Part shown: in pieces, positions 19,323 to 37,187 of the stretch
Position numbering within the stretch: the stretch's first letter is position 1
Layout of the letters: every line of letters starts with the position of its first letter
Assembly: GCA_903839975.1 (NCBI GenBank)
Contig: CAIMEH010000013.1
Location: forward strand, 15,999 to 79,998
Length of the DNA stretch: 64,000 nucleotides
Direction: 5' to 3'
Source of the DNA: an uncultured Candidatus Berkelbacteria bacterium
Lineage (GTDB): Bacteria; Patescibacteriota; UBA1384; 2-12-FULL-50-11
The notes under the pieces: generated by a model
What the model saw: only the letters and a program-made list of their open reading frames with translations
Told to the model about the DNA's origin: nothing
Database searches by the model: none
Made by a program: the position numbers and the translations under genes

Positions 19323-20231
19323 TTAATTACTAGCTTTGTCGTGGAATTTTTTGTGGACTTCCCGGAGGGATTTGTCGGTGATGTGGGTATAGACTTGGGT
19401 GGTAGCAATCGAGCTGTGGCCAAGTAAGGCCTGAACCGAACGAAGATCCGCACCGTTGCGTAAAAGGTCGGTAGCGAAGCTGTGACGCAGCTTGTGGGGG
19501 CTGATGGGCTTGGTGATACCAGCTGCGCGAGCATATTTATTAAGCATTCGCTGAATTGAACGTGCCGATAGGGGATTCTTCTTGTTATCTAGCTCGGGGT
19601 TGGTGAAGTGGCGGATAAATAAATACGGGTTCACGTCTTGGCGAACATCGATATAATCACCCAAATCCTCGATAGCTTCTTCTGTTAAGAAAACTGGCCG
19701 GACTTTACCGCCCTTGCCTTTAACCGAGAACTCGCCGGAGACAACGCTAACTTGGTTGCGTTTTAATTCTGTTAGCTCGCTGATACGCAAACCGGTGGAA
19801 TAAAGCATGCTATATATGGCTCGGTCACGCAGTCCTGACAGGTCACCGATTGGAATGGCGGTTCTAATCTGGGCAACTTCTTCCGGTTCCAGGAAGCTAA
19901 CTTGGCGGCCACGAGTTTTGCTCAGGGTAATTTTTTCTGGCGACATCACTTCGACGTCACGGTTGATTAAGTATTTCAGCAATGCACGGATAGCAATTAA
20001 ATAATAGTTTTGAGTCGATTTGCTTTTTCCCACCTCGTAAAGTTTTTCTATCTGAAAATCGACAATATCTTCGGCAGTTACTTGCTCAATATCAGTTATC
20101 TTTTTCTCTTCGGTCCAGTTCTCAAAAAGTGTCAGGTAGGTGGTGTAGTTGCGAACGGTGTTGGGCGAGTAGCCTTTAGAAACGACGCAGTACTTTAAGA
20201 ATTCTTTTATTGCTCTTTTTGTAGTCATTGT
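19323..20231 (-). CDS. tyrosine recombinase XerC/XerD family
   Basis: The C-terminal catalytic region has RHSFAT, LGHSSIATTQVYTH and the Tyr. Start placed at MTTKRAIKEF. Confidence 0.85.
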   Translation of the reverse strand, partial: TMTTKRAIKEFLKYCVVSKGYSPNTVRNYTTYLTLFENWTEEKKITDIEQVTAEDIVDFQIEKLYEVGKSKSTQNYYLIAIRALLKYLINRDVEVMSPEKITLSKTRGRQVSFLEPEEVAQIRTAIPIGDLSGLRDRAIYSMLYSTGLRISELTELKRNQVSVVSGEFSVKGKGGKVRPVFLTEEAIEDLGDYIDVRQDVNPYLFIRHFTNPELDNKKNPLSARSIQRMLNKYARAAGITKPISPHKLRHSFATDLLRNGADLRSVQALLGHSSIATTQVYTHITDKSLREVHKKFHDKASN

Positions 20232-20280
20232 TATATAACTCCGGTATACTTTAACACGAATTAAGATACTATTTTTTTGT

Positions 20281-20883
20281 ATGCCAAAAACCAATATAGA
20301 CTGGAAAAACGACCTAGCCGAGACAATCTCGGTGTTGGCGAACCCAGCACTAGTTATGCTCGGCGGGCTGGTGCTAATTATCTATCATTTTGCCCCTAGT
20401 ACCGACAAATTTTGGCACTGGTTGCTGATCAGTGGATTGCTTTTATTTATCCCCAGCTCACTTTACTTGGCCTATACCTGGAAAAAAGAAGACCAGATTG
20501 ATATCGATGTTTCAAAACGTCAGGACAGGTTTGTGCCGATGATGCTAATGACTTTAGGCGCGATTGTGGGGGGTTTTATGGTTCAGAGACGATTGGATAA
20601 TGAAACTATAACGGCTTTAAGTTTTACTCTTGCAGCTTTATTGATGGTTCTGACCATTACTACTTTTGTCTGGAAGATAAGTTTACACGCCGCTAGCCTG
20701 GCCACGACTGTTAGTTTGCTTGTGGCCTTCGGTGGTGCAAATTACGCTTGGCTGTATTTAGTGCTAATACCGGTAGTTTGGGCGCGCTTAACTTTAAATA
20801 AACATACGCCGGCACAGGTAACTGGCGGAACTTTGGTTGGAATAATTATCACCTTCTTGGGTGTAGGATTTTTCAAAGGATAA
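20281..20883 (+). CDS. hypothetical integral membrane protein (200 aa)
   Basis: Five to six predicted TM helices. Confidence 0.5.
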   Translation: MPKTNIDWKNDLAETISVLANPALVMLGGLVLIIYHFAPSTDKFWHWLLISGLLLFIPSSLYLAYTWKKEDQIDIDVSKRQDRFVPMMLMTLGAIVGGFMVQRRLDNETITALSFTLAALLMVLTITTFVWKISLHAASLATTVSLLVAFGGANYAWLYLVLIPVVWARLTLNKHTPAQVTGGTLVGIIITFLGVGFFKG

Positions 20884-21026: not shown

Positions 21027-22181
21027 CTATATCTCAATGTCTTGAACTACTGGGGCGGCTGGCTTTGGCGCGTCGGCCGGAGCAACTGGTGTTGAAGTCG
21101 GTATCTTTGGTGCTGGTTCGGCTAATGGCTCAACTTTTTTTATAGAATCCATTGGTTCACCTGGCTCAGTGACAGTCTTTGGTGGTTCATCAAAAGGAAT
21201 GGTGATGTGATTTTCTGGTGGTGGTGGCAAATCTACCTTTTTTTCTGCCATTGGTGCTGGCGGAGGTGGTGGTGGCAACGGAACATCAACTTTTGGTACT
21301 ACTGGCGTAGGCGAAGAAGTAACAGGTGGTGGTGGAGGTGGCAAAATCGGTTTTGGTGCGGAATCAAAAGCCGGTGGGGCTGGTGGCGGCGGAGGTGCTG
21401 GAGTAAAACTTGGAGCTGGTGGGGTTGAAGGCGAAGAGATGGGGAACATTGGCTTAGCAATTGGAGCAGGTGGCACTGGCAACGGTGGAGCAACTGGCAA
21501 CGGTGGTGGGGTTGGTCGTGGTGGCGTAACCGGCGGCATTGGCAACGGTGGCGTTGGTGTAACTGGCGCAGCTACTGGTGGTGGCGTTGGGTTCGTGAAC
21601 TGAGTTGATGGAGTGCTATTAATTGCTAGCGGCTCGGATTTTGGTGGCATGATTGGCCATGGATTAACTGTCCGTGGCGCTGCCGATGGTGGCGGTGTCG
21701 TGTTAGACGGCGCGCTCATCCACGAAGGATCTACCATTGGTTTTACAAACGGTGCTGGATTAGTCGGGGCAGATACAGGTTTAGGTGTAAAAGTTGGCTG
21801 AGTTGGTGCTACTGGTTTTGTTGGAAATGGCACAACTGGCGGCGAAAAAGGCTTGGCGTCAAAAGATGGTAGATCAATCTTTGGCGTTGGCACAGACGTT
21901 TTTGGCACGCTAAAACTTTCAACTTTTGGCAAGTCTACGTAATGAATTTCGGATTTTTCCTCTTTTTTCGTTTCGTGAATTTGTGGGGTTGTGGAGCTGG
22001 TTGGTTTCTCGCCCATAATCTCGGCGAGGTAATTTATATTAATAAGTGCGATAGCTGGCTTGCCGCCCTTGGTTAGGACGTACATACCATCTTTCTGGTT
22101 CTCGATGTCGGCAACTATACGGCTAAAATTATCACGGGCGTCCGTGAGTGGCACGATTCTGTCTATCGGAACATTAATCAT
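21027..22181 (-). CDS. Phd/YefM-like N-terminal domain fused to ~330-aa proline-rich low-complexity tail
   Basis: N-terminus MINVPIDRIVPLTDARDNFSRIVADIENQ...KPAIALININYLAEIM is antitoxin YefM-like. It is followed by PPPPLP/PTPP repeats. Confidence 0.5.
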   Translation of the reverse strand: MINVPIDRIVPLTDARDNFSRIVADIENQKDGMYVLTKGGKPAIALININYLAEIMGEKPTSSTTPQIHETKKEEKSEIHYVDLPKVESFSVPKTSVPTPKIDLPSFDAKPFSPPVVPFPTKPVAPTQPTFTPKPVSAPTNPAPFVKPMVDPSWMSAPSNTTPPPSAAPRTVNPWPIMPPKSEPLAINSTPSTQFTNPTPPPVAAPVTPTPPLPMPPVTPPRPTPPPLPVAPPLPVPPAPIAKPMFPISSPSTPPAPSFTPAPPPPPAPPAFDSAPKPILPPPPPPVTSSPTPVVPKVDVPLPPPPPPAPMAEKKVDLPPPPENHITIPFDEPPKTVTEPGEPMDSIKKVEPLAEPAPKIPTSTPVAPADAPKPAAPVVQDIEI

Positions 22182-22305
22182 TAATATCTTCTCCCCTCTA
22201 TAAAATAGACTAAAGAGTGTGGGTGGTACTGTCAATGTTTACTAAAAATAGCGCCATTTGGCAGATATTTGTCGCCCTTGCTCGTGGCCGTCATTAGGTT
22301 AGAAT

Positions 22306-24147: not shown

Positions 24148-25203
24148 GTGAAACTCTACTACTTGAGTTTCTTTGCTGCCGCCGTCATCTCCGCCGTTCT
24201 AACGCCGTTACTGGTTAAATTTGCCCAAAAGCGTCATATTTTCATGACCGAAGTTCGCGAGCGCGATCTTCACAAAAAGCCAACTCCAAGAGTTGGTGGT
24301 ATCGCCGTGGTGGTTTCATTTTTGGTGGTTACGGCCGCATTTATTATCTTCTCTCCAACTAGTTTGGTCTTTACTGGTGCGAAAGTTTGGGGCATCGACA
24401 AAAATTTGTTTGGCGTATTACTGTCAGTAATTTTGCTGAGCGCCTTTAACGTTGCTGATGACTTCAAGAGTTTGCCTTGGCAGATACGACTATTTATTCA
24501 AACCGTTGTGGCATTAATGATTGTGGCCTTTGGAGTGAACGTGCCGTGGCTCTCTAGTCCGTTCGGAGGCAAGATAATTTTAGGTGCCTTCAGTAGTATC
24601 TTCTCGATTCTGTGGCTGGTTGGCTTAACCAACGTTATTAACTGGCTCGATGGTGTCGATGGTTTGGCTGGTGGCGTTAGCGCTATTGCCATGGTTTTTA
24701 TTATTTTCTTATCGGTCAGTAGCAAGGTTAATAACCACGCCAATGCTTTATTGGCCACGGCCGCCCTTGGGGCAATCGCCGGATTCCTACCTTTTAATAT
24801 TGTTCGTGCCAAAGCTTTCTTAGGCGATACCGGCTCGCAGTTTGTTGGTTTTATGGTTGGGGTTTTGGCGATAATTTCTGGCGGCAAAATCGCCACCGCT
24901 TTTTTGGTACTGGCGATCCCCTTCCTTGATGCCATTGTTGTTTTGGGCTCTAGAATAATTCATCATCAGTCGCCGTTTCAGGCCGACAAACGTCATCTTC
25001 ACCACCGCTTGCTCGACATCGGTTTTAAACCTTGGCAGATCGTTGGTCTGTACTATTTTATTACCGCCTTGTTTGGCCTTATCGCCGTTAACACCGAGTC
25101 GCTCGGCAAACTTCAGGCCAGTATGTTCGCCCTGGCTTTAATGATGGTGCTGGTTCTGCTTTACTCGTATGGAGGCAAAAGAAATGTCGCAAAAAATATC
25201 TGA
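24148..25203 (+). CDS. glycosyltransferase family 4 (MraY/WecA-like) polyprenyl-phosphate sugar-1-phosphate transferase
   Basis: Multi-TM protein with NVADDFKSL (DDxxD) and NWLDGVDGLAGG motifs. Confidence 0.75.
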   Translation: MKLYYLSFFAAAVISAVLTPLLVKFAQKRHIFMTEVRERDLHKKPTPRVGGIAVVVSFLVVTAAFIIFSPTSLVFTGAKVWGIDKNLFGVLLSVILLSAFNVADDFKSLPWQIRLFIQTVVALMIVAFGVNVPWLSSPFGGKIILGAFSSIFSILWLVGLTNVINWLDGVDGLAGGVSAIAMVFIIFLSVSSKVNNHANALLATAALGAIAGFLPFNIVRAKAFLGDTGSQFVGFMVGVLAIISGGKIATAFLVLAIPFLDAIVVLGSRIIHHQSPFQADKRHLHHRLLDIGFKPWQIVGLYYFITALFGLIAVNTESLGKLQASMFALALMMVLVLLYSYGGKRNVAKNI

Positions 25204-25699
25204 AGACGAATATAATTTTCGCGGTCGTAGAGCGGACGAGCAAGTTTTGCTAGTTGCTAAGAACCATTCTTGGCTACTAATGCCGATTTTTTATGCCTGG
25301 GTACTAATAATTGCGGTTTGTGGTGTAGCTTTGTGGAAATTTGGTGCATCAAGAGTTGTTTCATATACAGTCGTTATATCGGTAGCTATAGGAATCTTAT
25401 ACACACTTTACCAGTGGTTTATCTGGGACTGCGGTACATATATCATCACTAATCAAAGAGTTATTAGGATTGAACAAATTGGACTGTTTAATCGCCAAAT
25501 TTCCGAAGCTGAGATTGACCGAATCCAGGAAATTTCCACAGAAATAAAGGGACCAATTCACACACTATTCAATTTTGGTACTGTTCATATTCAAACTGCC
25601 TCAAGTGATGCAAAAGTGGATTTTGAAGATATAGCAATTCCCTATGACATACAGCAAGAGATAGCTAGGATTCGTAAAACCTTCAACGCTAGTGTTTAG
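25184..25699 (+). CDS. membrane protein with bacterial PH (bPH_2/YdbT-like) domain
   Basis: Two TM helices followed by a PH-like domain. Confidence 0.55.
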   Translation: MSQKISEDEYNFRGRRADEQVLLVAKNHSWLLMPIFYAWVLIIAVCGVALWKFGASRVVSYTVVISVAIGILYTLYQWFIWDCGTYIITNQRVIRIEQIGLFNRQISEAEIDRIQEISTEIKGPIHTLFNFGTVHIQTASSDAKVDFEDIAIPYDIQQEIARIRKTFNASV

Positions 25700-25705
25700 T
25701 AGAGC

Positions 25706-26827
25706 TTAAGGCTTTTCGGCTTCAATAAACAATATACCGTGGTATTTTGACTCTGATGGTTTTTCGGAGTTCTTCTTGGAGATAGAAAGTATTCTGAACC
25801 CAGCTTCTGATAAATATTTTTGGGCAAAATCTTCGTCTAGATATATCGCAGGAAAGTAACTATCGCCACTTTTGTAAACAATGGCTCCCTCAAGGGCTGT
25901 CATAAGTAGAATTCCCTTGGGCTTAAGATAGGAATGTATATTATCAAGCATATTCTTGTATTCGGTAATGTCGTCAGTCGCGCTTTCGGGACAAAAGTTA
26001 GACTGTACTATATCGAAGCTATCTACTAGCTTGTCGTTGAGGTTGTTAAGGTTTAGGGGTTCGATGCTTGTAATCTTCTTTCTTAGGAGCTTGCTTCGTT
26101 CTTCAACTTCGCTTCCTCCCTTGGGCTTATCCTCTAAAGACAAGACATATCTAGTAAAGTCGTCCCATTGAAAGGCTTGGCTATTATTTTTTTGCCAATC
26201 TCTTATCTTATCTAAGTTATTTTCTGAGTAATCAGTAAAGGTTATTGATTTAACCTTATTGGCCGCCGATAGAAGTTGGTAAACCGTTGGACCGCCACCA
26301 ACTTCAAGGAGCTTGTAGCTGTCGCTTTTCATCTTGGAGTATATCTTGTTGTACCAATTTAGAATGTCTTTATTCTCTCTGCTCAATACTCGGTAATATT
26401 CTTTAAGGTATTTTTCGGGAGAGAAAGTGTCAAACGTCCTGTTTATATTCATCTGATCGTATCTAACCACAGAGCTGTAGATATTATTGTCTAGCAAGCT
26501 AAAATATTCTTTAACAAAATTTATTACCTTCTGTGAGTCGAAGTATTTACAAGAGAAAACGTCCAGGCAGAACTCACCATTCTTGGTAAAAGTATGTATT
26601 GAAATGTGAGAGAAATCGATAATCGCAAATGCAGTTACTCCGGGATTTTCAGGTATACCATCAACAACAATTGGCCCTGCTAATATTTTCATGTCAACTA
26701 AACTAGCTAGCTTTAATATCAGTGAGCTAATGGCTTTTTTGTCGGACAGCTTTTTTTCTTCGCACCCAAAGGCGTCCAAAACAATATGAAATCTTCTCGA
26801 CGTATAGCTGTCCACTCTAGCTTTCAT
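25706..26827 (-). CDS. fusion protein: class-1b S-adenosylmethionine decarboxylase (SpeH-like) N-terminal domain plus NNMT/PNMT/TEMT-family SAM-dependent methyltransferase C-terminal domain
   Basis: N-domain: HIVLDAFGC and the FSHISIHTF (ESH-like pyruvoyl site) motifs. C-domain: FSPEKYLKEYY and LLEVGGGPTVYQLLSAANKVKSITFTDYSENNL, which closely resembles the NNMT SAM-binding region. Confidence 0.7.
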   Translation of the reverse strand: MKARVDSYTSRRFHIVLDAFGCEEKKLSDKKAISSLILKLASLVDMKILAGPIVVDGIPENPGVTAFAIIDFSHISIHTFTKNGEFCLDVFSCKYFDSQKVINFVKEYFSLLDNNIYSSVVRYDQMNINRTFDTFSPEKYLKEYYRVLSRENKDILNWYNKIYSKMKSDSYKLLEVGGGPTVYQLLSAANKVKSITFTDYSENNLDKIRDWQKNNSQAFQWDDFTRYVLSLEDKPKGGSEVEERSKLLRKKITSIEPLNLNNLNDKLVDSFDIVQSNFCPESATDDITEYKNMLDNIHSYLKPKGILLMTALEGAIVYKSGDSYFPAIYLDEDFAQKYLSEAGFRILSISKKNSEKPSESKYHGILFIEAEKP

Positions 26828-33799: not shown

Positions 33800-34186
33800 T
33801 TAGCGGGGTTCGTGATCTAATGATTTTATCCAACCGTTAGTCATCTGTGAGATTTCCTGAAGCTCTTGCGATACTAACACATAGTTTCTTGGCTTGATTA
33901 TTTTTAGCTCATAGCTAACTCTAATTAGCCTCTTCTCTAGCTCAACCTCTCTGCGTAATTTTTTAAGGTTAGGTAGCTTCTCTTGTTTGGGTAAAAAAGC
34001 CGCCTCTACAGCCAGTGTTAAGCTGTTTAAGCACGAGTTTTCGATCCTCGTAAATATTCCTAACTTGTCCCTCTTGGGTAGACTTGAGCTAAGGCTGTAA
34101 ATCTGTTTGTATAATTCAATAATCTTATGAACAACGGGAACATCGTTTGTGGAAAACTTTCCCGAGAGAGAGAGAGGGAGAGAGAG
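33800..34186 (-). CDS. avd: Avd-like accessory variability determinant (four-helix-bundle family). The open frame is 128 codons with no canonical start codon in frame.
   Basis: Translation ...VVHKIIELYKQIYSLSSSLPKRDKLGIFTRIENSCLNS...QELQEISQMTNGWIKSLDHEPR resembles Avd/bAvd proteins, including the C-terminal I.KMLNGLIKSL-type helix. The stop codon sits in the loop of hairpin 33786-33811. Confidence 0.6.
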   Translation of the reverse strand, partial: LSLPLSLSGKFSTNDVPVVHKIIELYKQIYSLSSSLPKRDKLGIFTRIENSCLNSLTLAVEAAFLPKQEKLPNLKKLRREVELEKRLIRVSYELKIIKPRNYVLVSQELQEISQMTNGWIKSLDHEPR

Positions 34187-35184
34187 CTAAAAGAGTCTTT
34201 TTCCATGAAGGTACTTTCGCAAAAATAATCTCTTTAGACAACCTATTCTTGGCATGGGCGAATTATTGTAAGGGCAAGAGGAGTAAAGATGATGTTCAGA
34301 AATTTGAATTTTCGCTAGAAGACAATATTTTCCAGCTTCATAACGAGTTGCTAGCGCACAAATACAGTCCAGGAAAATACCAACAATTTTTAATCACTGA
34401 CCCCAAAAAGCGAGTCATAAGCAAAGCACTGGTTCGCGATCGTTTGCTTCATCAAGCGATTTATCAGATTCTTTATCCGCTCTACGACAAAACTTTTATT
34501 TTTGATAGCTATTCATGTCGCAACGGTAAAGGAACGCACAAAGCATTTGCTCGGCTTGTTTCCATGACGCAAAAAGTCAGTCGCAGCTACACCGCACCTT
34601 GTTGGGCGTTGAAGATGGATATTAGAAGGTTTTTTGACAGTATCGACCACGAAACTTTGCTTGAGCTTCTTGGGCAAAGAATAAACGATGCTTACTTAAT
34701 GACGCTACTGGAAAATATTGTAAGAAGCTTTGAATTCAGCCCAGGCAAGGGTATGCCACTTGGAAATCTAACTAGTCAGCTTTTTGCCAATATCTACATG
34801 GATCCGTTAGATAAATTCTTAAAACACAAACTAAATGCTAAATACTATCTGCGCTACGCCGATGATTTTGCAGTTGTCTCGTCAGACCATGATGAATTAC
34901 TTGGGTATTTTATTGAGATAAATAGTTTTCTTAAAGAAAAACTAAAACTATCGTTCCATCCGAATAAAATTGGTCTCCGTAAATTAAGCTGGGGCATTGA
35001 TTTTGTCGGCTATGTGGCGTTACCGCACTATCAATTACCAAGAAATAAAACCGTAAAGCGAATATTGAAGAAAGTCGCAAAATCTTCCGAAGAGGAATTG
35101 TCAAAAACTTTGCCGTCGTACCTTGGCTATCTTAACCACGCTTCAAGCCACAAAGTTACTAAAAAAATAATGCCTTCTACCTAG
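34147..35184 (+). CDS. DGR reverse transcriptase; TTG start as in the ORF track, true N-terminus uncertain
   Basis: RT motifs: DGR-specific LGNLTSQLFANIY (I/LGxxxSQ in motif 4), catalytic YADD (YLRYADDFAV), and the motif 1/2 region (RVISKALVRDRLLHQAIY). Confidence 0.9.
   Translation: MWKTFPREREGERAKRVFFHEGTFAKIISLDNLFLAWANYCKGKRSKDDVQKFEFSLEDNIFQLHNELLAHKYSPGKYQQFLITDPKKRVISKALVRDRLLHQAIYQILYPLYDKTFIFDSYSCRNGKGTHKAFARLVSMTQKVSRSYTAPCWALKMDIRRFFDSIDHETLLELLGQRINDAYLMTLLENIVRSFEFSPGKGMPLGNLTSQLFANIYMDPLDKFLKHKLNAKYYLRYADDFAVVSSDHDELLGYFIEINSFLKEKLKLSFHPNKIGLRKLSWGIDFVGYVALPHYQLPRNKTVKRILKKVAKSSEEELSKTLPSYLGYLNHASSHKVTKKIMPST
34164..34186. repeat. (GA)n / (CT)n dinucleotide microsatellite at the divergent overlap of the RT and Avd N-termini
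   Basis: gagagagagagagggagagagag. Confidence 0.9.
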
Positions 35185-37115: not shown

Positions 37116-37187
37116 TGCCGGGTCGTCTAGTGGTAGGACGATTGCCTCTGGAGCAATAAATCGAAGGTTCGAATCCTTCCCCGGCAA
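37116..37187 (+). tRNA. tRNA-Gln (anticodon CTG)
   Basis: Cloverleaf folded by hand: acceptor tgccggg/cccggca, 3-bp D-stem gtc/gac (Glu/Gln-like), anticodon stem attgc/gcaat with loop ctCTGga, T-arm gaagg-ttcgaat-ccttc. No encoded CCA. Confidence 0.75.

Follow-up and report, generated by a model that had tools for sequence, protein, structure and literature searches.

A SpeD-type pyruvoyl decarboxylase domain fused to an NNMT-family methyltransferase in an uncultured Candidatus Berkelbacteria bacterium: a putative arginine decarboxylase/agmatine N-methyltransferase

Background

SpeD-derived arginine decarboxylases and the NNMT family of S-adenosylmethionine (SAM)-dependent methyltransferases are both already established. 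SpeDA, exemplified by S. solfataricus SSO0536, is a homologue of SpeD, the SAM decarboxylase (AdoMetDC), neofunctionalised to a pyruvoyl-dependent L-arginine decarboxylase (Li, Liang, Phillips, Michael, JBC 2023, PMC10407285). Here, we describe a single gene in which a SpeD-type domain is joined to an NNMT-family methyltransferase, located on a 64,000-nucleotide stretch (hereafter, the window) of contig CAIMEH010000013.1 from an uncultured Candidatus Berkelbacteria bacterium.

Two further described systems invite comparison. The SpeD1-SpeD2 fusions of Omnitrophota and Desulfotignum, which combine AdoMetDC with ornithine decarboxylase (ODC), likewise place a SpeD-fold pyruvoyl domain in a bifunctional polyamine-pathway protein (PMC10407285), and in them, as predicted for the window fusion, the chain that bears the pyruvoyl group after self-cleavage also contains a second catalytic domain. 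Their partner, however, is a second SpeD-fold decarboxylase and their pathway ends in spermidine with SpeE, whereas the partner in the window is a methyltransferase and SpeE was not found nearby. Plant putrescine N-methyltransferase (PMT), derived from spermidine synthase (PMC3725402), also performs SAM-dependent N-methylation of an amine produced by a basic-amino-acid decarboxylase, but it is a PABS-family and not an NNMT-family enzyme, has no decarboxylase fused to it, and serves alkaloid biosynthesis with putrescine as its substrate.

We consider it fairly probable that the window protein is a bifunctional arginine decarboxylase/agmatine N-methyltransferase, because members of its clade lie in speD-speY-speB operons, because its methyltransferase family is also fused to PvlArgDC and to pyridoxal phosphate (PLP)-dependent decarboxylases, and because its relatives are linked to phosphagen kinase and to guanidinoacetate N-methyltransferase (GAMT). 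The architecture, the conserved catalytic residues, the fold, the gene contexts and the domain swaps are observations; from them we infer which substrate is used, where and how often it is methylated, and what the product does physiologically. The literature search returned no description of the fusion, in agreement with the preliminary description of this DNA, which had been aware of no characterised example, and none of an agmatine N-methyltransferase; the literature mentions N-methylagmatine itself only among rare plant metabolites and as a constituent unit of saskemycin.

Architecture and integrity of the fusion

The fusion gene is read from the minus strand of the window, and the plus-strand translation of 25706..26827 has many stops. 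The gene and its parts, with residue numbers of the product, are as follows.

25706..26827, minus strand: whole fusion open reading frame (ORF), 373 amino acids (aa) plus stop (stop codon 25706-25708), ATG start, uninterrupted
26456..26827, minus strand: N-domain, residues 1-124, SpeD/AdoMetDC-fold pyruvoyl-dependent decarboxylase of the (F/Y)SH...HTFT clade (PF02675, E 1.9e-20)
26606..26614, minus strand: F72-S73-H74, predicted autoprocessing site, aligned with T. maritima E62-S63-H64
26594..26596, minus strand: His78, equivalent of T. maritima His68 (processing and catalysis), from alignment and conservation
26585..26587, minus strand: Thr81, at the Pro position of HT(W/F/Y)P, Thr in 20/20 fusions
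26549..26551, minus strand: Cys93, equivalent of the catalytic T. maritima Cys83, from alignment and conservation
25712..26443, minus strand: C-domain, residues 129-372, NNMT/PNMT/TEMT-family SAM-dependent N-methyltransferase (PF01234, NF041360, NNMT match, Foldseek)
26264..26305, minus strand: E175-VGGGPTVYQLLSA-188, glycine-rich SAM-binding motif, equivalent to NNMT DIGSGPTIYQLLSA by alignment
25967..26017, minus strand: F271-DIVQSNFCPE281SATDDI, post-beta4 loop by alignment, with a putative role in substrate binding

The Pfam search suggested in the preliminary description returned both families well over their gathering scores: AdoMet_dc (PF02675) at residues 14-110, with 73.7 bits and an E value of 1.9e-20 against a gathering score of 25, and NNMT_PNMT_TEMT (PF01234) at residues 129-372, with 145 bits and an E value of 2.9e-42. 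Together with the uninterrupted reading frame, these matches bear out the SpeD/NNMT-type fusion which that description had proposed, and every motif it quoted was located (H14-IVL-D18-AF-G21-C22; F72-S73-H74; F135-SPEK-Y140-LKE-Y144-Y145; E175-VGGGPTVYQLLSA-188). Its concern that a frameshift had merged two separate genes can be set aside, given that 20 full-length homologues (48-59% identity), from independent assemblies in the NCBI, ENA, JGI and Logan collections, share the same architecture; a frameshift or chimera artefact is thus ruled out. These 20 full-length fusion proteins make up the homologue alignment used throughout. An AlphaFold2 model of the fusion, built on the 20 homologues, reached a mean confidence (pLDDT) of 90.3 and a predicted template-modelling (TM) score (pTM) of 0.73.

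The decarboxylase domain

In a search of PDB sequences, the N-terminal half matched T. maritima and A. aeolicus SpeD weakly (E ~0.003-0.01), and both its profile match and its Ser/His/Cys residues place it in the class 1b SpeD superfamily. On alignment, the T. maritima counterparts of S73, H78 and C93 are S63, H68 and C83, which take part in pyruvoyl formation and catalysis (PMC10407285). Across the 20 fusions, H14, D18, S73, H74, H78, T79, F80, T81 and C93 are invariant, the block IIDFSHISIHTFT is nearly so, and F72 is replaced in a single homologue, by Tyr. Conservation of the FSH serine, on which the preliminary description had made its proposal depend, therefore holds for Ser73 and equally for Cys93. 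The H-x-x-x-D-x-x-GC block that it had taken as a hallmark is present, but the Cys of that block (C22) is missing in two homologues and is therefore not the catalytic Cys; C93 sits in an FSC block.

The proenzyme would self-cleave between F72 and S73, as we infer from these residues, and S73 would become the N-terminal pyruvoyl group of an alpha chain (residues 73-373) that would carry the whole methyltransferase domain, with the beta chain (residues 1-72) staying bound. That the N-domain is instead a degenerate, non-catalytic module for ligand binding or oligomerisation, riding on an active methyltransferase, has almost negligible probability: degraded SpeD domains do occur in other fusions (V. 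vadensis) and the Phe at position -1 is unusual, but Ser73, His78, Cys93 and 20 further N-domain positions are invariant, the conservation of the N-domain equals or exceeds that of the methyltransferase domain, and standalone orthologues of ~123 aa are widespread in bacteria of the candidate phyla radiation (CPR), in DPANN archaea and in Bathyarchaeia. The invariance of the self-processing and catalytic triad also disfavours the related suggestion of the preliminary description, that the decarboxylase domain had been repurposed for SAM binding.

Several features separate the N-domain from bona fide AdoMetDC (EC 4.1.1.50). Against TIGR03330, the AdoMetDC equivalog model of NCBIfam, it scores 57.2 bits, below the cutoff of 75.65. 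T. maritima Phe49 (six residues before Ser55), presumably the adenine-stacking counterpart of human Phe223, aligns with Gly57, which is invariant in the fusions. The Pro of HT(W/F/Y)P is reported to be fully conserved in bona fide AdoMetDCs and lost in SpeDA (Li et al. 2023, PMC10407285), and all 20 fusions read HTFT, with Thr81 in its place. Spermidine synthase (speE) was not found among the 20 mid-size ORFs of the window; agmatinase, a deoxyhypusine-synthase homologue and phosphagen kinase were likewise not found, either among these ORFs or by tblastn with exemplars; and none of the four was found within +/-10 kb of five other fusion loci, around which no conserved operon partners were detected. 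Because of the sub-cutoff TIGR03330 score, the Thr in place of Pro, the lack of a nearby speE and the operon context of the clade discussed below, the N-domain is probably not a SAM decarboxylase, and the earlier proposal that this half makes decarboxylated SAM (dcSAM) from SAM is probably wrong.

An ODC-like character is not apparent either. SpeDC, the SpeD-derived ODC, is diagnosed by Gln, Thr(-1), Phe and Tyr in the pattern Q..ETS..GHF..Y (PMC10407285); these residues were not found in the window protein, which reads AIIDFSHISIHTFT...CLDVFSC. The domain thus presents the sequence profile of SpeDA: the SpeD fold and triad, neither the AdoMetDC Pro nor the ODC residues. It further resembles SpeDA in its class 1b fold, in having no speE found near it, in the speY-speB clusters of its clade members and in its occurrence in CPR and DPANN, and differs in being bound covalently to a methyltransferase, in its D-F-S-H rather than E-S-H cleavage site, and in having no agmatine-to-putrescine genes near it. 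Neither the virosphere paper nor the 2026 homospermidine paper gives substrate-discriminating residues.

The methyltransferase domain

The assignment of the C-terminal half to the NNMT family in the preliminary description is confirmed. Matches to PDB sequences were led by NNMT (E 1e-28), PNMT (1e-19) and INMT (6e-18), and the model of the C-domain superposes on NNMT with a TM score of 0.85 (normalised to the target) and a root-mean-square deviation of ~2.5 A (Foldseek). The SAM contacts of NNMT are kept, Y20, Y25, G63-x-G-P-T, Y69, D85 and N90 corresponding to Y140, Y145, G176-GGPT, Y182, D199 and N204. The columns of NNMT D197, S201 and S213, which we take to be the nicotinamide-binding residues, hold T310, G314 and A327 in the fusion, and the protein therefore does not qualify as NNMT proper.

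The closest curated model is that of GntF, the pre-guanitoxin-forming N-methyltransferase (NF041360, 108.9 bits against a cutoff of 60). In the guanitoxin pathway, GntF methylates a primary amine of a guanidine-bearing diamine, and its substrate is, like agmatine, a guanidine-bearing amine. The fusion shares Pfam family, fold and SAM-contact residues with GntF and with animal NNMT, PNMT and INMT; it differs from GntF and NNMT in the attached decarboxylase, in the replaced nicotinamide-binding residues, in having Glu281 for NNMT Asp167, and in lacking a gnt-type (gntA-J) cluster, none of the ORFs identified in the window belonging to such a pathway. Glu281, which is the same in every fusion and almost invariant among all relatives linked to a decarboxylase, may bind the substrate amine. 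When all the decarboxylase-linked methyltransferases are aligned, they are seen to share F278-x-x-E281-S-x-T and an FPA block.

Exchange of the decarboxylase partner

Relatives of the methyltransferase domain are joined to several other domains.

P0397, 471 aa: PvlArgDC (PF01862) plus NNMT-family methyltransferase
P0303 and P0348, 734 and 736 aa: NNMT-family methyltransferase plus PLP-dependent Orn/Lys/Arg decarboxylase (PF01276 and PF03711; OKR_DC_1)
P0337, 579 aa: NNMT-family methyltransferase plus LPG_synthase_C (aminoacyl-PG-synthase-like)

PvlArgDC is the M. jannaschii-type pyruvoyl arginine decarboxylase, whose fold is unrelated to that of SpeD, and the methyltransferase of P0397 is 33% identical to that of the window over 248 aa, the full length of the domain. 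Counting the SpeD, PvlArgDC and PLP types, three unrelated decarboxylase folds are linked to one methyltransferase family, and for this reason the simplest common denominator would be that the methyltransferase acts on the amine derived from arginine, or at least from a basic amino acid. Two proteins, P0372 and P0383, carry two methyltransferase domains each.

The wider of these formulations leaves room for ornithine, lysine or another amino acid as the substrate of the N-domain, with N-methylation of the corresponding amine (for example to N-methylputrescine, as by plant PMT). We judge this quite unlikely. ODC activity has evolved in the SpeD family, members of the OKR_DC_1 family can use Orn, Lys or Arg, the PABS-like partner described below recalls the switch from spermidine synthase to PMT, which acts on putrescine, and substrate specificity is not readable from sequence. 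Set against this, the four SpeDC diagnostic residues are missing, no lysine decarboxylase was found among assayed SpeD homologues, and the PvlArgDC fusion and the phosphagen kinase, GAMT and speY-speB (agmatinase) contexts indicate a guanidino compound.

A sister fusion bears on the AdoMetDC question. P0036 (291 aa) and its relatives combine the same FSH-type domain with a PABS-like domain of ~157 aa, which also occurs standalone, is widespread in CPR and DPANN, and is called 'spermidine synthase' in some sources. With spermidine synthases the profile of this family gives a weak match (E ~0.005), slightly poorer than that with a generic methyltransferase. The glycine loop of the family reads GYG[FL]G for the GGGDG of spermidine synthases, with Phe or Leu in place of the Asp that specifies dcSAM. 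In spermidine synthase this Asp holds dcSAM by its aminopropyl amine and repels the SAM carboxylate, and the D103I mutant of the plant enzyme has lost spermidine synthase activity and gained that of a putrescine N-methyltransferase (PMC3725402). Given this replacement, the partner domain of P0036 is more likely another amine methyltransferase, which, as in PMT, lacks the dcSAM Asp. For the same reason we rejected it as proof of AdoMetDC function. Conserved blocks of the ~157-aa family are YLWMWDTPQE, GYG[FL]G and GDIWPD, and the domain is fused to SpeD domains of the FSH type or of a Q-F-I-x-T-S type (L009 2809-3684; L023 9456-10317; P0036, P0260 and P0274).

It is highly unlikely, in our view, that the N-domain is a true SAM decarboxylase and that the fusion channels dcSAM/SAM chemistry, methylating an aminopropylated product or using or modifying dcSAM. 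The Pfam family is named AdoMet_dc, the NCBI name of one homologue (P0005) includes adenosylmethionine decarboxylase, FSH-type domains are fused to the PABS-like mini-domain, and a related HTFT-type SpeD (L052) passes the TIGR03330 cutoff with 82 bits; all this speaks for it. Yet the N-domain itself falls below that cutoff and lacks the reportedly invariant Pro, no aminopropyltransferase was found among the 20 mid-size ORFs of the window or near the five other fusion loci, and the PABS-like partner has GYG[FL]G for GGGDG. The methyltransferase retains Tyr residues (Y140, Y145) matching the SAM-contact Tyr residues of NNMT, which we take to bind the SAM carboxylate; consuming SAM beside a SAM-dependent methyltransferase makes no chemical sense; and the PvlArgDC and OKR_DC fusions, like the phosphagen-kinase and GAMT links, would go unexplained.

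Gene contexts of relatives

For the context survey, ~200 loci were fetched, SpeD-like genes were classed by motif and their neighbours were clustered. In three loci (L075, L081 and L078) an FSH-type speD is directly followed by speY, encoding a deoxyhypusine-synthase homologue (PF01916), and in L075 and L081 the arginase-family speB (PF00491) follows speY. SpeD homologues in the speD-speY-speB arrangement have been shown to be arginine decarboxylases (Li et al.; PMC10407285). No genes for agmatine use (speB, aguAB or speY) were found alongside the window fusion gene itself.

The two activities also occur as neighbouring genes. Separate SpeD-like and NNMT-family methyltransferase genes are adjacent in five loci (L067, L107, L137, L052, which is divergent, and L008); the pair of L067 consists of an FSH-type SpeD and a methyltransferase of 40% identity separated by a 125-bp gap, and that of L107 is separated by 4 bp. 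The closest standalone relatives of the methyltransferase (47-49% identity) are followed by an ATP:guanido phosphotransferase (PF02807 and PF00217) in 4/4 loci, on Altimarinota/Gracilibacteria-type contigs.

L006, 10001-11994: 283-aa methyltransferase, then phosphagen kinase
L008, 8001-10444: the same pair of genes
L061, 6001-7999: the same pair of genes
L062, 2485-4488: the same pair of genes

In L008, a SpeD gene with the FSH/HTFS signature follows the kinase. The kinase is nearest to sea-anemone arginine kinase (4rf6), and its substrate-specificity loop is changed from D-S-G-V-G-x-Y to D-D-P-T-G-A-Y. Arginine kinase holds the carboxylate of its substrate through backbone amides, those of Gly64, Val65 and Gly66 (PMC5598448). 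The DDPTG loop would fit a carboxylate-free substrate, and the methyltransferase-kinase loci may represent a carboxylate-free phosphagen system. A sequence-pattern scan of metagenome contigs for the kinase found nothing.

A further link to guanidino compounds is seen in L137 (2777-4925), where an NNMT-family methyltransferase gene is followed by a SpeD-like gene (ESH/HTFP) and a GAMT homologue (E 1e-52 to rat GAMT) is divergently transcribed. The established pair of GAMT and creatine kinase offers a parallel, in that a methyltransferase of guanidino compounds is coupled to an ATP:guanido phosphotransferase; among the relatives this is mirrored by the methyltransferase-kinase operons of L006, L008, L061 and L062 and by the GAMT homologue of L137. 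It differs in that the methyltransferase here is of another family, the proposed substrate is decarboxylated and cationic, the kinase loop is altered, and no kinase is present in the window.

This parallel raises the question of whether the same two activities serve another chemistry, either methylation of the guanidino nitrogen, as in creatine, or methylation of arginine first, followed by decarboxylation of methylarginine. The methyltransferase shares an operon with a phosphagen kinase, creatine is itself an N-methylguanidino compound, and the N-methylagmatine units of saskemycin have been hypothesised to arise from omega-N-methylarginine. Enzymes of the NNMT, PNMT, INMT and GntF type, however, methylate ring or amine nitrogens, and L137 has a separate GAMT homologue for guanidino methylation; we give this alternative a very low probability.

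Near SpeD-like genes in L005, L014, L034, L052, L053, L107, L120 and L137 there is also a pair of unannotated proteins of ~285 aa and ~95-108 aa, accompanied in several of these loci by NNMT-family methyltransferase, LPG_synthase_C and histidine-kinase genes. The pair, which is absent from the window, may be part of a larger conserved module.

Distribution of the fusion and its clade

The N-domain profile recovers 7415 SpeD-like proteins at E <= 0.001. The best-scoring are standalone proteins of ~123 aa, and those inspected have the FSH...HTFT signature. Within 185,579 species-representative genomes, standalone FSH-type proteins occur in CPR bacteria (Blackburn-, Gottesman-, Curtiss-, Kaiser-, Davies-, Roizman- and Uhrbacteria, Microgenomates and others) and in DPANN archaea (Aenigmatarchaeota); KSH and ESH variants are found in Bathyarchaeia, Altiarchaeales, Dojkabacteria, Saccharibacteria and others. 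Bathyarchaeial loci L035-L051 and L088-L106 hold a separate D-K-S-H...HTFT SpeD clade, often neighboured by an MFS transporter or a Na+/H+ exchanger, together with a C_GCAxxG_C_C protein.

The fusion is rare. The same genome set contains one full-length example, in a metagenome-assembled genome labelled 'archaeon' (L015), and an exhaustive HMMER search of 1.84 billion sequences representing 50%-identity clusters yielded two full-length clusters, P0007 (the main family) and P0310 (divergent, a 366-aa FSH/HTFT domain plus methyltransferase). Bacterial contigs bearing it include the window, L005 and the contig of P0010 (with sortase and FtsX genes), and archaeal contigs include L001 and L002 (with thermosome, Cdc6 and Trm5/Tyw2 genes); the fusion occurs in both CPR bacteria and DPANN-like archaea. 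A full-length fusion was not found in IMG/VR, and a viral origin was rejected on that ground; a phage search for SpeD-like sequences gave 6 remote matches.

In a neighbour-joining tree, which took in no characterised SpeDA enzymes, the (F/Y)SH clade, including the N-domains of the fusions and the speY/speB-linked genes, received 88% bootstrap support. Monophyly of the fused N-domains received 8%, and a single fusion event is not claimed. One member, HNU96007.1 (P0005), carries the NCBI name 'bifunctional adenosylmethionine decarboxylase/class I SAM-dependent methyltransferase', the first half of which is probably wrong. The archaeal fusion in L015 (8523-11081) and L066 (307-1402), from separate assemblies, has the same +1 frameshift near residue 232, which may reflect a pseudogene, recoding or a shared error. 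The L015 fusion adjoins a divergent operon with a second SpeD paralogue (ESN...HTYP) and a deoxyhypusine-synthase homologue.

Proposed reaction

According to the arginine decarboxylase/agmatine N-methyltransferase reading, the SpeDA-type N-domain would decarboxylate L-arginine to agmatine, and the NNMT/GntF-type domain would use SAM to N-methylate agmatine, giving methylated agmatine and S-adenosylhomocysteine. Methylation would most likely fall, once or more, on the new primary amine of agmatine, a site favoured because of the GntF precedent, because the kinase needs a free guanidino group, and because L137 has a separate GAMT-type enzyme. In Altimarinota (Gracilibacteria), the same chemistry would be carried out by separate genes beside a phosphagen kinase that would phosphorylate the free guanidino group. 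In the organism of the window, methylated agmatine may be the end product, as a polyamine surrogate or cation, because no kinase lies within the 64 kb. The preliminary description had envisaged an N-methylated aminopropyl or polyamine-like product; a methylated, polyamine-like amine is indeed probable, but its origin from dcSAM is not.

A number of observations weigh against this assignment. The SAM motifs are degenerate in three of the 20 fusions (P0010, P0018 and P0020). The speY-speB-linked members are 40-43% identical to the window N-domain and come from one lineage, and no assayed member of the (F/Y)SH clade is known to us. The 64-kb window yielded no guanidino enzyme such as a phosphagen kinase or an agmatinase. 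The Pro criterion is not absolute, as ESH/HTFP SpeD genes also adjoin arginase or deoxyhypusine-synthase genes, and one of them, in L137, adjoins an NNMT-type methyltransferase. The fusion of an FSH-type SpeD to a PABS-like domain can be read as AdoMetDC plus aminopropyltransferase, which is the best argument for a SAM decarboxylase.

Other features of the window

The neighbours of the fusion gene in the window are dnaE, a bPH_2 membrane-protein gene, a GT4 glycosyltransferase gene and ndk. The fusion gene has a G+C content of 0.38, ~2 standard deviations below the mean of the window ORFs (0.461 +/- 0.037), which fits lateral acquisition. The convergent bPH_2 membrane-protein gene, which spans 25169-26827 together with the fusion gene and whose stop lies 6 bp from that of the fusion, also has a G+C content of 0.38 against 0.46, and the two genes may be a laterally acquired pair.

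Elsewhere in the window, an ORF at 34147-35184 encodes a reverse-transcriptase domain (RVT_1, E 5e-25) and could be part of a group II intron, a retron or a diversity-generating retroelement; a tRNA gene lies downstream of it, at 37116-37187. On the minus strand, a 402-aa ORF at 21027-22235 is extremely proline-rich in its C-terminal three quarters (PPPP/PxP repeats), with a local G+C content of 0.51, a strong GC skew and an N-terminus that looks antitoxin-like by eye alone. Also on the minus strand, 19323-20294 encodes a tyrosine recombinase/integrase (Phage_integrase plus a SAM-like N-domain), which may be XerC/D or belong to a mobile element.

Significance

If the proposed assignment is true, agmatine N-methyltransferase would be a new enzymatic activity, and arginine would be converted to methylated agmatine by a new two-step route housed in a single self-cleaving polypeptide. 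The assignment would also correct the database annotation 'bifunctional adenosylmethionine decarboxylase/methyltransferase' and extend SpeD neofunctionalisation to the large (F/Y)SH clade of many CPR phyla and DPANN-type archaea. The recruitment of three unrelated decarboxylase folds by one methyltransferase family is a strong signal of selection for the pathway in many lineages.

A broader proposal, speculative and on balance rather unlikely, joins these strands: the fusion would be the core of a hitherto unrecognised agmatine-methylation pathway in ultra-small symbiotic prokaryotes that, in Altimarinota (Gracilibacteria), feeds a dedicated phosphagen kinase to give phospho-(N-methyl)agmatine, a new carboxylate-free bacterial phosphagen, with other lineages passing the amine to an LPG_synthase_C-type aminoacyl transferase. 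The window enzyme would then be a single-polypeptide producer of the precursor of a phosphagen, that is, of an energy buffer. The link to phosphagen kinases is a hint that organisms with minimal genomes may have a so far unexplored metabolism for energy buffering or cations.

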